Below are positions 15,001 through 21,000 of a stretch of 39,646 nucleotides of DNA, one piece after another. Source of the DNA: Fervidicoccaceae archaeon (lineage in GTDB: Archaea; Thermoproteota; Thermoprotei_A; Sulfolobales; Fervidicoccaceae); NCBI GenBank assembly GCA_038734945.1, contig JAVYOA010000001.1:186001-225646 (forward strand). The letters are read 5' to 3'. The position numbers are program-made. The first letter of the stretch is position 1. Each line of letters starts with the position of its first letter.

Positions 15001-18000
15001 TGGTAGAGCACAAAATTTGCGAATGTGGAAACGAGATAGTGCTCAAATATGTTCTTGCTAGACGACTCTAATTCCGTTTATCTTCTTGCTCTGCCAAGAG
15101 TACCTTCTAATTCTCTTCGACCTGCCGAAGCCACATGCTGCACAGTAACCCTTGGCAACATTGAAGCTATGCCTTCCACATCTCCTGCACCTTATATGCG
15201 TGTAGCTCCTCGAGTGCTTCCCCATCGATGTTGTTCCCTTTACCACTGAAGCTCACCCTCTCACAGGCCTGAAGCAGGAGAGACAATTATTACATTATCT
15301 CCTCTTATTATCACGGTTCCAAGCTTCCTTGGCTGGCCATCCGGGTACAGCTCCTCCGCATCCTCGAGCACTATATTCAGATGATGATCGTAGCTTTTCA
15401 GCTTCCCCCTAACCTCTTTATTTCCCTTCAGCTTAACAAGCACGATCTGTCCTACAGAGTTCGACAGTATTTTTTGGGCAGTATCACTCATCACACTCAC
15501 CGCACGAGCCAAACAATGCTCAAGGATTTTAATCGCTCATAACGAATTAATAAACATTAGCCGAGCTGATTGTGAAAATGAAGAGGCACTTCCTCTCAAA
15601 GAAGGATAGAGAGCAACTCCTTTTGCTTCTAGAAAAGAAGCTCAAGATATCATCCCTTCCGGAAAGCGTCGAGGTTATGGAGGATGAGGAAACGAAGTGC
15701 TATATATTTAATGGAACTCCAGCAATTTGCATTCTCGACAATGAGCCAATACCGCTTCTCAAGTGGCTCCTCAAAAGCAGCGGACAAAAGCCCTCCATAC
15801 CGAGAATAGTAGTTAATATGGGGGCCGTGAAGCCAATAGCCAATGGAGCAGACCTTATGGCTCCAGGCATTGTGAAGATCGAGGGAAGCTTTCCAAAGGG
15901 TTCAATAGTACTAGTTGTTGAGGAAGAGAGAGGAATTCCCATAGCAGTAATGAGATCACTCCTCTCCTCCGAGGAAGTTTCGTCCATGAAGAAGGGAAAG
16001 GTTGCAGAGAACATCCACCATATTGGAGACAAGCTCTGGAAGGAGCTATAGAAGGAGCAGGGAATCCAGGTTCGAGGGAGCATATATCCTTGCTCCAGAG
16101 AGCCATCTGAGCACGTGCTTCTTCCTTTCAATGGCTGAGGCGAGTTGCGCAATTGCTGAGGGCTCTCCATGATTCAGTACAATGTTCCTGGGCTTAGGCT
16201 CGATGTTTTCAAGAAATGACAGCAGCTCCCCTCTATCGCTATGCCCGCTGAACCCCTCTACGGAGTGAACCTCCATGTTTATCTTCAGAGGAACCAGCTT
16301 TCCCTCGCTGTTCATCAGCATTAGCTCTCTCTGCCCATCCTTTATCTTCCTCCCCAATGTCCCCTCAACCTGGAAGCTCACGAAGACCAGGGAGTTCCTC
16401 TGATCCTCTGCTAGTAGCTTCAAATACTCTACGCTCGGTCCACCGTTTAGCATTCCACTTGTAGCTAGTATGACAGATGGTCCACCTTCCGCGATCTCCA
16501 TCCTCATGTCTCTATCCTGCACAACAATGAAATTCTCATTGTAGAAAGGATTTTCACCTGAATGTATTGCCCTCTCGACACTTGGAGACATGAGCTCGGG
16601 ATAGTGAGTGTGTATTGCAGTTACCTCCGTTACCATTCCCTCTATGTAGACAGGCATTGGCTGAAGAGCCCCACTTTTCAAAGCCTCAGATATTATGAGC
16701 ATTATCTCCTGCCCTCTTCCCACGGACATTATTGGAATCAGAGTCTTTCCTCCTCTCTCTGCAGTTCTTTTTATTATGGAGAGAAGATTTGCCTCAGCCT
16801 CGCTCCTCGAGGGAAGCTTTGTTTCTCCATATGTGCTCTCCATTATTAGGGTCTCAACCCTCGGGAACTTGTCTACTGCCTTGCTCAGTAGCCTCGTGTG
16901 AGCATATTTGAAATCTCCCGTGTATACTATGTTGTGTAGTCCGTTTCCTATGTGCAGATGAACCATTGCCGATCCCAATATGTGACCAGCATCATAGAGA
17001 GTCAGCCTCACATCTGGAGCTATATCAGTAACATCTCCGTAGTCGACCGTTATCGTATGGAGAATCTCCTTCTTAACCTCCCTCTGAGTGTATGGGGGCA
17101 TTCTACCCTCTCTGGTCATTATATCGAGATAGTCCAGCTGAGTCAAGACCATTATATCCCTTGTAGCCTTCGTGGTATAGACGGGACCATTGTAGCCATA
17201 TTTGAACAGTAGGGGAAGCATTCCAACATGGTCCAGATGAGCGTGGGATATGACAACAGCATCTAGCTCTTCCAGTCTGAGCTGCTCAACGTCGAATCTG
17301 GGAGCCATATCAGGAAAGCTGTTTGCCCCTGGGCCCGCTCCTGCATCCAGGAGCACTCTGCTCTCCTCCGTTTCAACGAGAATAGCAGATCTTCCAACTT
17401 CCTGGAACCCCCCCAGAGCTGTTATTCTAACCCCCCTTGTTTTGAAAAGAGGATCCCTGTGAATTCTTTCCCCTATGCTTCTTAGAAAGCTCTTCCTGTA
17501 GCTACTTTCTCCTATGAGCTGTGATAGAATGCCGTCGAGAATTTTGGAAGAAGTTGGTGGAGCCCTTATTATAACTGGCCTCCAGCCAGTCCTTATTATT
17601 ATATCTCTCCTTATGTTTCCTCCCTTTCCAATAACAAGACCAGGTTTCTCTGCTTTTATTATAACATCCCCGAGGACATCGTCGAACTCAATTGCCTTTA
17701 TCTCGGCCTCCTTTGGGACAAGCTCCATTATAGTCTTCTTAGCTTCCTCTTTCTGCTTTCTTATTTCTGGATCGGTTCTTATGACCACTCTCTTCCTTAT
17801 CGTCCTGGCTATCTCCTTTATTACCCCCATTTGTTCCAACAGTATGCCGGGATTCTTCACATATATAGCTATTTCTGGCCCCTCGAACTCTATGGAAGTC
17901 ATCATTGCTTCTTGCGGAACTAGGGATATTATTGAGTTCCTGAGCTTTGCTATTGAGCTAGCTTTTTTCGAATTGCTTGAATTCATAATCACGCACTCTC

Positions 18001-21000
18001 TCGCAAACGTCGAACTTATTTTCCAGCCAGAAAATGACGGCTGGAAACGATCAAGGAGTCGATATTGAAGGATCAATGCTTGTTATCATGCTTTCGCAAA
18101 ATATCCTTTTATTCTTTTCCCCTTTATATTTCCAAAGTCTGAACCAAAAATCCTATCCAACAGACTAGCTTTTCTATAAAGCTGACATGAGGCTTCTCTC
18201 TCTCAATCGATTAGCATCAACATTCGAGTCCACCATTCTCTTCGCTCCCTGAAAGAAATGTTTTGCAAAACATTCTTCCTTCTGAAAGGAGGGAAAAATA
18301 TCAGGATTCTGGATCAAGTCGCATGGGCATAGTTAAAACTGACCTCCTCTCTGCCCTGGGGGCCGGGGATATGCTTTTTGTCTTTCTCAATATGGTGTGT
18401 GCTCCCACCAGGTCTGCGTTGAAAGCAAACTGTTCATCGCTTCTGAAAAATGCAGGGTGTCTTTCATTAAATATTTCCAGCCCTTTCTCGAACAGAAGAA
18501 CAACCCATGTATGGTGCTTCTTATCAGCTCCAATCTATCCATTGAGAAAGGTTAACTATTCGATTTCACTGCTCTCAGGAAGCATGTTCAGCCGAGCTGC
18601 TGCCTCACCCCAAGGTGTTAGGGCTGGGTATCCCCTTCCCCTCTTCTCAACGAGGCCGATCTTTCTCAATCTGGAAATCCTATTGATAACTGTTTTCTCC
18701 CCAATGTGCAGCTTAGCAGCAATTTCCTTGTATGATGCCCTAGGAGACTCAAGAATTGCCTCTAGGATCTCTCCATCCTTTGTACCGAATCTGTTTATTA
18801 TAAAGTCTATAAAACCATATGGTATTCGAAGAGTTTCTGGACTGCCTTCTATGGCGCTCTCGATGCTGAACTTTTGCCCAGATGCCAAAGCAGAAAGAAG
18901 AACGAGAACCGATGCGCCTCTCATCCCTCCTCCAAGCTCAAGTATTAGATGTCTGTCCCCACATTCCTTCTTAATTACCTCTGTGAGCTTCACTATGCTT
19001 TCCCATGGTCTGTCAAAGTTCATATGAATTGTCGTCACGAGATTGTTGTCAAGACCAAGCTTGCTAGCAAAATGTTTGAACTCTTCTATGGCCTTAAGCG
19101 ATGTAGGATTTTCAGGACCACTAATAATTATAATTTTTTCCCCTTTTTTCACATAGCTGTCACTTATGCGCCTGAGCCCCACATCTGAATGAAAGCCTAT
19201 GTTTATGATAAAGCATCTCTCCATAGTTCCCACAATTCCCATTCTTTTCAGGGAAGTATTTAAATGCTTTAATAAATGACGTTTTCCTATAATAATGAGT
19301 ATTCTTCGGCAGAGAGCTCTTGGAGCTATTTAAAAGCTTTTACAGTAACTAAGAGCTAAATATTCAATTTAGTGCATATTATTGAGCAGTAAGCGTGATT
19401 AGAATGTCCCTGAAGGACGTTCTTGAGAGAGCCAGAGAAAAATACAACCTCTATAGAAAGCCCGAGGCAACTGCTGAGATAGTTAGCATAGATGAAAAGG
19501 AAGGGGTAGCAGAGATTAAAATTGTTGGAAGCTTCTGTAGAACCTGTGGAGTCGATGACTGGATTGAGGACTTCAGGATTCTGCTAGAGGATGAGGGAAT
19601 AACAGCAAAGCTTGAGGAGTACAGGATCGACTTCGAAGGCGAAGAAGCAAGGGCTAAGCTTAGAATAGAGTTGCCTCGAAGGATGAGGAGGCACTAGTTG
19701 TATTGCAGAAGCACTTCAAATTCTCACAGCAGCTAAGAGTGAAAGCGATAAGCATTAAGGGAATCATAGTAATGCTGAGGAAAAATTTTTGAGGAAAAAT
19801 AAAAGAACGCAAAAATTTATGAAAAGAAGCTTTCTTTCTCAGGAGTGTGCCGTAACAGATATGATGGCGCTAGCTCCTGTTGGGGCAACAACCTTTATTG
19901 TGTAGACCTTTCCTGGAGTTATGGTGTTTCCTCCAGATGGTGTTAGGGAGGCAGATATCTGCTGCACCTGTCCCGAGCTTATTGTTATGCTCCCGGACTG
20001 CCCGCTAGCAATGAGAGACCCGCTCTGATTGTACACATAGATGCTGAAAGATCCGCTTAAGTCAGAGGAGCCTATGTTTCTAACGTAGAGACTAGCAACA
20101 GTCGTGCTCAGATCAGCAGCATCTATGGATATAGCGGAACCAACGTTTCCCGTGTTGAACTGTGTTGCAGAAGATGAGAGGCTGCTGACCCACACATACA
20201 GAACTGCTGCAGCTGCTATTGCTATGAGAATCAGGAGGAGGGTTGCAACTATTGGAGAAACCCCCCTCTTGACAAATCTCTTTCTCCCCATCAAAACATT
20301 CACCAATACTGCAATCAAAAATAAACGTGAGATTACAAAATAAATTTGATCCTGGTAAAACAAAAGTTTTCAGCGGAAAAAAATAATACCATTGAGCAGG
20401 GAAATCTCTCCTTAACATTGGGTGCTCAATATGAATTCTGTAACCATTGGAATAACAGGGGCCAGCGGAATAGTATATGGAATAAGGACTTTGGAAGAGC
20501 TTCTTGCCTCTGGAATGAATGTCTCTGTTATCTACACCAGCAGTGCTGAGAAAGTGGCTGAGTACGAGATAGGCAGGGATCTGAAGGATATCCTGGAAGA
20601 TCTATCGAAACGAAGCACTGGAAAAATGAAAGTTTACAGGGATAGAGATCTGGATGCTCCAATAGCGAGCTCCAGCAATATGGACGAAGCAGTTATAGTT
20701 GTTCCCTGCAGCATGAAGACCCTTGCTCAGATAGCATATGGCATTTCCAATAACTTGATCGTCAGAACCTCATTGAACGCGTTGAGAATGAAGAGACCCC
20801 TCGTTCTGGTTCCGAGGGAAACCCCGCTTGGCTATGTGGAGCTGAGAGCCATGCTCAGAGTCAGCGAGGCAGGAGCTATTGTTCTTCCAGCAATGCCTGC
20901 TTTCTATATAAGGCCAAAGAGCATAGATGACATGGTGAACTTCATTGTTGGAAAAGTCTTCGACACTCTCGGACTGAAGCACTCTCTCTACAGAAGGTGG

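Follow-up and report, generated by a model that had tools for sequence, protein, structure and literature searches.

The assembled genome of this Fervidicoccaceae archaeon, from which a stretch of 39.6 kb (the window) was analyzed, has no working CRISPR-Cas system; CRISPR immunity appears to have been lost from this organism. The same genome carries a gene, csa3, which judging from its sequence is intact and encodes a Csa3a-type transcription factor. We consider it probable, at roughly 65%, that this factor was stranded when its CRISPR unit was deleted or rearranged away. A stranded csa3 together with CRISPR debris is a pattern already known in other microbes. Section 4.6 of PMC8699464, citing earlier surveys, reports Csa3 in CRISPR-Cas-less organisms and in genomes without Cas10, and the present genome resembles those cases in lacking both. 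It differs from the cases as described there in that homologues allow the former CRISPR context to be reconstructed, and that decayed debris persists in the same genome.

Genomic context of csa3 in the genome and in its relatives

The closest homologue of this Csa3 is found in F. fontis (about 60.5-62% identical; 61% over 213 aa), where csa3 is divergent from a 14-repeat CRISPR array with a 280-nt leader in between. Two metagenomic loci encode Csa3 proteins with 50% identity. One of them (L054) presents an array, a leader and csa3, beyond which come another csa3, csa5 and cas7, and in the other (L055) csa3 is followed by cas4, cas1 and csa1. Csa3 genes of this subtype therefore adjoin either a CRISPR leader and array or type I-A adaptation genes in all three relatives with usable flanks, which strongly supports the claim of an earlier note on this DNA that csa3 was left behind. 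A similar layout, with csa3 between the CRISPR leader and the adaptation cassette, is described for S. solfataricus Csa3a in PMC8699464, according to which the association with an array or type I-A genes is typical and not obligatory.

No array or type I-A genes were found near csa3 in the window or its flanks, and positions 17900-19450 contain neither a CRISPR repeat nor a trace of cas4, cas1 or csa1. Features of the locus are collected in Table 1. The aCPSF1 protein is 87-91% identical in both congeners (G001 and G002), where its upstream neighbor differs, and gene order relative to the two genomes breaks exactly at the csa3 site. On the other side, the 100-aa gene has no Pfam or NCBIfam match, and its homologues in G001, G006 and G007 do not adjoin csa3. 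The pilin-like gene adjoins UbiX in G001 as well. The same csa3 arrangement is present in contigs of three sequencing runs from two studies.

Table 1. Coordinates of csa3, its neighbors and the CRISPR debris (window positions unless a contig is given)
Feature	Position	Strand	Remarks
aCPSF1/FttA beta-CASP ribonuclease	16046..17986	-	housekeeping neighbor; TIGR03675, 898.9 bits
Non-coding spacer, csa3 stop to aCPSF1 start	17987..18555	.	569 nt
TnpB (IS200/605-type) 3'-end relic	18336..18426	-	terminal motif 18336-18357; 23 TnpB C-terminal codons 18358-18426
csa3 CDS	18556..19224	-	222 aa from predicted ATG start at 19224; CARF and winged helix-turn-helix
Palindrome TTCCC-N10-GGGAA	19236..19255	.	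between TATA-like box and csa3 start codon; candidate Csa3 operator
15-nt core promoter	19251..19265	-	TATA-like box and half of the palindrome
100-aa gene, family-less	19395..19697	+	divergent from csa3; occupies the position of the relatives' CRISPR leader and array
Type IV pilin-like gene	19839..20363	-	Pilin_N E = 0.0027, under the cut-off (weak match)
Full-length TnpB open frame	32823..34106	-	428 aa; subfamily differs from that of the relic
cas6 C-terminal (3') half	C4:27183-27551	-	369 nt; residues 157-279 of 288
Two repeats with 35-nt spacer	C4:27623, C4:27682		flank the cas6 fragment
Inverted decayed repeat	C4:27148		flanks the cas6 fragment
Single repeat-like sites	C2:306995, C2:307040, C9:188325		

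The spacer between csa3 and aCPSF1 yielded no Rfam family and no remnant of cas4, cas1 or csa1. As previously noted, it does hold the end motif of a TnpB element. This ACTGACCTCCTC-type motif is identical in 19 of 22 nt to C2:417575-417596 and in 17 of 20 to C6:191-210, next to the two full copies of this element type (C2:417598-418944 and C6:212-1546). The adjoining 23 C-terminal codons, in which 14 residues are identical to the TnpB at C2, are all that is left of the TnpB open frame and its RuvC and zinc-ribbon domains, and about 105 nt that separate motif and codons in the full copies are missing from the relic.

The ancestral layout would have been that of the nearest relatives, with csa3 opposite a CRISPR leader and array in head-to-head orientation and next to a type I-A adaptation cassette. 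Deletion or rearrangement of the CRISPR unit would have left csa3 with about 55 nt of its own conserved promoter, flanked on one side by aCPSF1, with the TnpB-end relic lying in between, and on the other by an unrelated 100-aa gene.

The Csa3 protein, its promoter and a possible selected role

The CARF-HTH gene announced by the earlier note is real. Its product matches Pfam Csa3_N (PF22662, E = 2.6e-22, residues 9-128, profile positions 1-118 of 120), HTH_24 (E = 2.4e-9, residues 155-199, aligning with the winged helix-turn-helix of 2WTE and 6WXQ), TIGR01884 (62.7 bits, cut-off 60.2) and the PADLOC models CARF3 (E = 8e-53) and Csa3 (E = 3.8e-34). Sequence matches to the solved Csa3 structures 6WXQ, 2WTE and 6W11 reach E of about 1e-10, and the CARF plus winged-helix architecture is that of Csa3a from Saccharolobus solfataricus and Sulfolobus islandicus. 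The open frame extends to an upstream ATG at 19242 (228 aa, 18556..19242). We infer that translation starts at Met7 of this longer frame, since database cluster P0001 is 222 aa long, the subfamily alignment opens at MERCF, and in F. fontis a stop lies shortly before the GTG-ERCF start of the frame.

The CARF pocket is predicted to keep the residues that bind cyclic tetra-adenylate (cA4), with the exception of the last Phe of motif 1. As in Csa3a, motif 2 (small-small-G-hydrophobic-R) reads GGGMR and is accompanied by the Glu of the beta5-beta6 loop, both invariant among the five subfamily members. Motif 1 reads I-G-F-H-S-D-V and fits the pattern given for cA4 binding in PMC8844856 (hydrophobic-G-F-(N/D/H)-x-hydrophilic-F) in six of seven positions; Phe14 of Csa3a is replaced by Val here, and by Val or Ile in all five subfamily members, so the ligand may differ. 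According to the same source, an Ala mutant of this Phe in S. solfataricus Csa3 abolished binding. Unlike Csa3a, the present protein has no array, adaptation genes or Cas10 to accompany it, and its binding of cA4 and DNA is a prediction.

The 15-nt core promoter ATTTAAATACTTCCC is identical at the same place 5' of F. fontis csa3, and the arrangement TCCC-N10-GGGA also lies upstream of csa3 in F. fontis and both metagenomic loci. The palindrome of Sulfolobales Csa3a is similar (TCCCN8GGGA in PMC8699464), with a spacer of 8 nt in place of the 10 nt seen here. Position and conservation of the palindrome suggest that a Csa3 dimer bound to it, between TATA box and start codon, would repress its own gene. 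Csa3 would also stay ligand-free, since neither Cas10 nor any other known cyclic-oligoadenylate synthase was found; searches for the latter returned only a sub-threshold SMODS match of 19 bits and no match to mCpol. Genome-wide, TTCCC-N9-11-GGGAA occurs seven times, against a shuffle mean of 1.85.

We lean slightly toward regarding csa3 as a still-intact vestige without a selected role. The alternative, which we find rather doubtful, is that selection kept csa3 after the loss of CRISPR-Cas as a co-opted regulator of other genes (DNA-damage or pilus genes, for instance) or as a sensor of a different nucleotide signal. Consistent with this are the apparently intact frame, pocket and promoter, as well as the identity to F. 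fontis (60.5%), which ranks fourth among the 15 neighboring ORFs with matches. Among three samples, the two SNPs within csa3 are both synonymous, and 9 synonymous and 2 non-synonymous changes were counted over 7 kb. In S. islandicus, Csa3a acts as an activator of the DNA-damage genes ups and ced (PMC7515695), and the possibility of other Csa3 ligands in Cas10-less genomes is brought up in PMC8699464. However, csa3 was found in only one species of the genus and is missing from both congeners, where it is therefore dispensable. The cas6 relic described below likewise contains no internal stop, which indicates that debris can be young and that intactness proves little. Likewise, five of the six palindrome sites beyond csa3 fall inside long ORFs and thus reveal no regulon. 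The earlier statement that Csa3 must have another job accordingly goes too far: an intact frame, an intact ligand pocket and two synonymous SNPs would be seen just as well if the loss were recent. We regard as unlikely the more specific proposal that a Csa3 with an intact cA4 pocket is under selection in this CRISPR-less, Cas10-less lineage, where it would answer another signal (from an invading element or a host cyclase) and control DNA-damage or pilus genes. If a selected Csa3 did persist without CRISPR-Cas, the organism would be a natural system isolating its CRISPR-independent role.

CRISPR-Cas genes and debris in the genome and the genus

No k-mer (k = 10, 12 or 16) is repeated at least three times at a spacing of 40-120 nt on any of the nine contigs, while the same script recovers the arrays in loci of three other family genomes (G003, G006 and G007). 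Cas1 and Cas2 were detected in none of the three genomes of the genus and in all five other genomes of the family. Cas10/Cmr2, type I-A Cas7, Csc2 and RAMP each gave 0/3 in the genus, as did Cas3 above its cut-off; RAMP was found in G003 only (three genes). A Cas3'-like helicase match at C2:280845-281777 scores 82.2 bits, under the cut-off of 102.45, and comparable sub-cut-off matches occur in all eight family genomes, including G003 and G004, which have true Cas3. Four cas-bearing stretches of 20 kb each from G003 and G006 supplied 333 ORFs as tblastn queries, 38 of which matched the genome; the cas genes among these 38 were limited to csa3, cas6 and, with a weak match, the Cas3' helicase. 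Protein queries from the F. fontis I-A/III-B and G006 I-D systems retrieved no effector genes. These results agree with the earlier note on the absence of an array and on the distribution of Cas1 and RAMP. Its assertion that the genome has no cas gene other than csa3 and a Cas4-like nuclease is wrong, and at the level of relics CRISPR repeats are present as well.

Contig C4 harbors a cas6 fragment that encodes the C-terminal half of the protein, identical in 100 of 120 residues (83% aa; 85% nt) to a Cas6-like protein of G006, from a sister genus, and matching the PADLOC Cas6 model (E = 3.8e-18, profile positions 116-227 of 231). Together with three decayed repeats it lies on a 4.8-kb island at a tRNA-Met gene, which both congeners lack. 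The pair at C4:27623-27705 is the sole two-repeat unit with CRISPR-type repeats in the genome. Searches with four repeat types known from the relatives returned only sites at C4:27148-27705, C2:306995/307040 and C9:188325; in the control (40 shuffles per repeat) there were 0 matches at up to three mismatches, against 2 observed for each. The C4 relic resembles the type I-D locus of G006 (G006:C3, about 117-131 kb) in its repeat (1 and 3 mismatches) and in the Cas6 C-terminal half, and departs from it in that cas6 is reduced to 369 nt and the repeats to three, with no spacer in common and the other I-D genes absent. This relic is known from one assembly. Its identity to genus g4 is 80-85% nt, compared with about 70% nt among the congeners themselves, and it may therefore have been imported and not be an ancestral trace.

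The suggestion of a genus-wide loss of CRISPR-Cas is borne out to the extent that every family tried gave 0/3. Nonetheless, the three genomes, with 9, 40 and 140 contigs, are all bins, in which a locus could have gone unassembled; because completeness is computed from marker genes, each bin could lack a strain-variable CRISPR island. A CRISPR-Cas locus might then exist, unassembled or unbinned, with csa3 regulating it in trans. Action in trans is plausible given that in F. fontis, too, roughly 47 kb separate the closest homologue from the main cas genes, and the cas-adjacent csa3 paralogue there is split into two frames; the predicted cA4 pocket would also fit a functioning system. We nevertheless hold an artefact of this kind to be quite improbable. 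The seven cas families listed above are absent from three separate bins, the repeat-like sites on C4, C2 and C9 do not lie at contig ends, and the assembly, at 1.339 Mb, is no smaller than the closed genome of F. fontis (1.319 Mb). Moreover, a contiguous 225-kb contig lacks the array found beside csa3 in relatives, and so do independent contigs of 17.8 and 21.2 kb.

The least probable explanation is a recent solitary import, in which horizontal transfer brought csa3 into this species only, perhaps together with the mobile DNA that left its TnpB end beside the gene, and csa3 never had cas neighbors here: its presence in one of three genus genomes, at a synteny breakpoint beside the TnpB relic, and the uptake of g4-like DNA on C4 would fit, but the 61% identity to F. 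fontis is within the range of vertically inherited neighbors (34-75%), the promoter core is shared with F. fontis, the GC content of the region (0.41-0.44) matches the surroundings, and with a relic of merely about 90 nt the carriage of cargo is conjecture.

Other defense genes and thermophily

The Cas4-like gene mentioned in the earlier note is present (C2:202557-203054) and belongs to the solo Cas4 nucleases described in PMC5704561. The same solo Cas4 occurs in 8/8 family genomes, with or without CRISPR; it is no relic of a former system and says nothing either way about a loss. Similarly, the E-values behind a proposed Hma system at the start of C4 were reproduced (HmaC, 1.5e-52; HmaB, 5.2e-58), but the methylase matching HmaB fits MTase_II far better (E = 1e-266), no HmaA was seen, and the HmaC frame continues past the end of the contig, the locus being cut by the contig start.

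The claim of novelty for a Csa3 in a CRISPR-less organism is weak in view of PMC8699464. A survey covering 7,747 archaeal genomes puts the prevalence of CRISPR-Cas in the thermophilic classes of Thermoproteota only at '>50%' (bioRxiv 10.1101/2025.04.20.649705). The designation as a hyperthermophile is not upheld, as the type species of Fervidicoccaceae is described as thermophilic, and the two reverse gyrase genes of the genome are compatible with thermophily or hyperthermophily.

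The csa3 gene and its former context

The genome (1,338,861 bases in nine contigs, C1-C9; the window is C1:186001-225646) carries a lone csa3 open reading frame that passes the NCBIfam model TIGR01884 narrowly (62.7 bits, cut-off 60.2) and is matched by the PADLOC profiles CARF3 (E 8e-53) and Csa3 (E 3.8e-34). The product resembles the solved Csa3 structures 6WXQ, 2WTE and 6W11 (E about 1e-10 each). Translation likely starts at Met7 (window 19224), giving 222 aa, because the database cluster has this length, the subfamily alignment begins at MERCF and the frame of Fervidicoccus fontis opens directly ahead of its GTG-ERCF start.

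Features of the csa3 locus and CRISPR-like sequences elsewhere in the genome (G006, genome of the sister genus g4)
Feature	Position	Strand	Description
csa3 ORF	window 18556..19242	minus	228 aa; Pfam Csa3_N (E 2.6e-22) and HTH_24 winged helix (E 2.4e-9)
aCPSF1/FttA	window 16046-17986		left of csa3; TIGR03675, 898.9 bits
100-aa gene			right of csa3; no Pfam or NCBIfam assignment
TnpB-element relic	569-nt gap between csa3 and aCPSF1	csa3 strand	end motif and piece of TnpB C-terminus
cas6 fragment	C4:27183-27551	minus	100/120 residues identical to residues 158-277 of a G006 288-aa protein
Two 24-nt repeats	C4:27682 and 27623		upstream of cas6 break; 3 and 1 differences from G006 repeat; 35-nt spacer between
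Third repeat, inverted	C4:27148		just beyond cas6 stop; 4 mismatches
Look-alikes of second G006 repeat type	C2:306995 and 307040 (to 307063); C9:188325-188348		2-4 mismatches

The context of csa3 in relatives was reconstructed gene by gene. The closest protein in a large database is the Csa3 of F. fontis (62%). Its gene (61% identity over 213 aa) is surrounded by Sir2 and unknown genes, some 47 kb away from the main cas loci, and, read across the record start, faces a 14-repeat CRISPR array across a 280-nt leader. Two metagenomic loci encode proteins of 50% identity, one (L054) with the order cas7, csa5, second csa3, array, leader, csa3 and the other (L055) with leader, csa3, cas4, an unassigned ORF, cas1 and csa1; together they reproduce the Csa3a arrangement described for Saccharolobus (PMC8699464). 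A search of genome contigs for related loci returned no relative. The promoter beside the start codon is alike in our genome, F. fontis and both metagenomic loci: all four sequences hold TCCC-N10-GGGA between a TATA-like box and the start, and the 15-mer ATTTAAATACTTCCC is identical in the first two. Similarity stops beyond about 55 nt. We rejected a leader remnant in window 19280-19420, as local alignment was no better than with shuffles (observed score reached by 356/500 against F. fontis and by 35/500 against L054).

The place held by leader and repeats in the relatives is occupied here by the 100-aa gene, whose start lies 152 nt from the upstream ATG at 19242 and 170 nt from the likely csa3 start. 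We rejected this gene as a csa3 partner, since homologues in one congener (G001), in G006 and in a further family genome (G007) stand beside other genes; F. fontis yielded none. An Rfam scan of the window gave nothing but one distant tRNA. Gene order breaks exactly at the csa3 site relative to both congeners. In G001 an amidohydrolase-like gene precedes the 100-aa homologue and a different gene precedes aCPSF1, and in the other congener, G002, a pilin-like gene is inverted relative to aCPSF1. The window arrangement recurs in contigs of three sequencing runs from two studies, two of these runs being perhaps not independent of the assembly. Read depth for the organism is about 197x in run X1 and 120x in run X3. 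Overall, the suggestion that csa3 was left behind is now well supported: in relatives the gene adjoins a leader and array or adaptation genes, and here it was probably stranded from that former unit.

The earlier note had placed a TnpB-element end motif in the gap beside csa3, and this proved correct. The motif (window 18336-18357) matches C2:417575-417596 at 19/22 nt and C6:191-210 at 17/20 nt, and the adjacent 18358-18426 holds 23 codons of a TnpB C-terminus, with 14/23 residues matching the full copy at C2:417598-418944 (E 2e-6 in a small search). Relative to full copies, about 105 nt are gone between the two pieces. The genome has seven TnpB-domain matches, including one full copy inside the window. 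The gap also contains a perfect 18-nt palindrome, AATGTTTTGCAAAACATT (window 18257-18274), which could be the hairpin of an element end; a similar sequence lies near a TnpB fragment at C2:52.7 kb.

Other observations concern F. fontis itself. A csa3 paralogue adjoining cas1/cas4 (L008:1333-2074; G003:C1, about 59.3-60.1 kb) is broken into two frames that overlap and have 43% and 55% identity to the window protein; the array-adjacent copy is intact. Two arrays (L007:17254-18179 and L008:3768-4820) flank csa1-cas1-cas2-cas4-csa3 and seem to share spacers in mirror order; spacer pairs from both gave the same chance matches.

Searches for CRISPR-Cas across the genus

The absence of CRISPR arrays was confirmed for arrays of at least three repeats: a k-mer scan (k = 10, 12 and 16; three or more copies at 40-120 nt spacing) found none on any of the nine contigs, and the same code recovered arrays in loci of F. 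fontis, G006 and G007. Profile searches covered eight family genomes, three of the genus ARK-14 and five of other genera. Cas1 and Cas2 were each found in 0/3 and 5/5, respectively, Cas10/Cmr2 in 0/3 and 3/5 (one of them below cut-off), Csc2 in 0/3 and 3/5, type I-A Cas7 in 0/3 and 2/5, Cas3 core above cut-off in 0/3 and 2/5 and RAMP in 0/3 and 1/5. Sub-threshold Cas3 helicase matches occur in all eight genomes, including those with a true Cas3. The Cas4-like nuclease mentioned in the earlier note is present, yet it is of a solo type found in 8/8 family genomes and belongs to a known solo-Cas4 class (PMC5704561).

Independently of family models, we searched the genome by tblastn with all 333 ORFs of at least 80 aa from four 20-kb stretches, which carry the I-A and III-B loci of F. 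fontis and the I-D locus of G006. Matches were obtained for 38, and the only cas genes among them were csa3, the Cas6-like protein and a Cas3' helicase (29% identity), the last hitting a 957-aa helicase that scores under the Cas3 cut-off. Apart from the csa3 paralogue match, cas4, cas1, csa1, csa5 and a 451-aa ORF of F. fontis left no remnant below E 0.07 in window 17900-19450 or genome-wide. The 121 spacers from relatives' arrays matched the genome, three small mobile-element contigs included, over at most 19 nt. All searches are compatible with a genus-wide loss of CRISPR-Cas, as had been proposed, but the support comes from three metagenome bins (marker-gene completeness 99.95, 98 and 87% in 9, 40 and 140 contigs).

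The cas6 and repeat relic on contig C4

The statement that no cas gene except csa3 exists, the Cas4-like gene aside, did not hold, given a cas6 fragment with three decayed repeats on C4. PADLOC assigns the fragment to Cas6 (profile positions 116-227 of 231, E 3.8e-18), and its 288-aa Cas6-like counterpart adjoins the G006 array. A genome-wide two-copy scan (24-mers, up to 2 mismatches, 45-99 nt spacing) returned only the C4 repeat unit and one unrelated site outside the window (C1:94328-94405), a 29-nt direct repeat at 48-nt spacing that is not CRISPR-like. In 40 shuffles per repeat there were no matches at up to 3 mismatches, compared with 2 observed for each, and the reversed pattern had none across four genomes. 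The repeat patterns were absent from G001, and the only match in G002 falls within conserved coding sequence and was taken as chance. No viral contig matches the relic spacer exactly, and no other site in the genome matches it at up to 8 mismatches. The look-alikes of the second G006 repeat type sit in non-coding stretches of 1.27 kb (C2) and about 0.45 kb (C9).

The relic belongs to a species-specific island. In both congeners about 50 nt separate a tRNA-Met gene from an IF-2B-family gene; here a 4.8-kb insert (L020:2935-7710) lies in between. Besides the cas6/repeat relic it contains a GT4 glycosyltransferase, four short family-less ORFs and about 700 nt of non-coding sequence. DNA identity to G006 is 80% for the glycosyltransferase and 85% for the cas6 fragment, compared with only about 70% to the two congeners for the housekeeping gene flanking the island. 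Judged by these identities, the island appears to stem from an exchange with a g4-like lineage once the genus had diverged. Its presence means that the species' own lineage held CRISPR DNA fairly recently, but does not establish a system in the genus ancestor at that site. The glycosyltransferase (L020:5106-6446; C4:25105-26445), whose counterpart is on G006:C2, scores 27.7 bits against the Pfam family 'GT4 in conflict systems' (cut-off 26). Within the G006 cas6-like coding sequence, a CRISPR-repeat-like 24-mer (G006:C3:120287-120310, 2 mismatches to the degenerate pattern) lies about 40 nt from 120248, where homology to the fragment stops, and may mark a recombination site.

The orphan gene and CRISPR-less thermophiles

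The claim that this Csa3 must have another job was too strong. A functional gene with a role outside CRISPR is unproven, with points on both sides. The frame is whole, the promoter is conserved, and the product keeps the predicted cA4-binding residues except for the last one of motif 1 (I-G-F-H-S-D-V in motif 1, G-G-G-M-R in motif 2 and a Glu; residues according to PMC8844856); apart from that position, which is Val or Ile, they are invariant in the alignment of all five subfamily members. Among samples, the gene differs at two positions, both synonymous, the compared 7 kb having 9 synonymous, 2 non-synonymous and 3 intergenic differences, and its identity to F. fontis ranks fourth among 15 neighbouring ORFs with matches. 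On the other hand, csa3 is missing from both congeners, neither of which yields a Csa3_N match, and Val here replaces the Phe at the end of motif 1 that the Saccharolobus protein requires. The roughly 3% of one metatranscriptome run (X13) that was mapped yielded 0 reads, which carries no weight for or against transcription. The cas6 fragment likewise has no internal stop, so debris in this genome can be young. Cas10, Csx1, ring nuclease and mCpol were not found in the genome; as alternative signal synthases, SMODS (19 bits, below cut-off) and mCpol (no match) were rejected. Nor does the csa3 palindrome have a visible regulon: TTCCC-N9-11-GGGAA occurs at 7 sites genome-wide (shuffle mean 1.85, range 0-5), and we claim none, as 5 of the 6 other sites are inside long ORFs. 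A precedent for a non-CRISPR regulon is Csa3a of S. islandicus, which activates ups and ced DNA-damage genes (PMC7515695).

Orphan csa3 genes are a known pattern. According to section 4.6 of PMC8699464, many Csa3-encoding genomes are without Cas10 and Csa3 is often encoded apart from CRISPR loci; the same source notes Csa3 in some organisms that have no CRISPR-Cas at all, an acknowledged loose end as regards its ligand and targets. The present case is a well-documented instance that rests on metagenome bins, and the earlier observation was largely right but incomplete. What is new is the rebuilt former context (csa3, leader, array) and datable debris in the same genome, in the form of a species-specific island with half a cas6 and three decayed repeats. 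Should the genus prove to be without CRISPR-Cas, it would be a small and tractable case of such loss within a thermophilic family of crenarchaea whose other sampled genera all have the system, and the orphan csa3 would permit a test for CRISPR-independent Csa3 functions.

The type species of Fervidicoccaceae has its growth optimum near 65-70 degrees C. It is named 'thermophilic' in the title of its description, and two full-length reverse gyrase genes in our genome (C2:207485-211168, 1370.8 bits; C9:182005-185685, 1209.3 bits) agree with life at high temperature. The case for novelty of a CRISPR-less thermophile lineage is weak. A 2018 essay places CRISPR-Cas in virtually all hyperthermophiles (PMC6151929), and a 2025 survey of 7,747 archaeal genomes gives 31% overall and only '>50%' in thermophilic Thermoproteota classes (bioRxiv 10.1101/2025.04.20.649705). 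By the survey figures, thermophilic genomes that lack CRISPR-Cas are no rarity at present, although many of them are bins too. Literature searches, not aimed at the genus name, returned nothing on CRISPR in ARK-14.

Finally, three small contigs (C5, C7 and C8; L056-L058), matched by none of the relatives' spacers, have a combined length of 22.6 kb, a low GC content (0.39-0.40) and ends that are partly shared. Of their 36 ORFs, 34 fall into no Pfam family. C8 encodes a type B DNA polymerase of the protein-primed kind (PF03175, E 7e-34), and a weak Cas4-like match lies on C5; the set appears to be a virus or linear plasmid that was binned together with its host.
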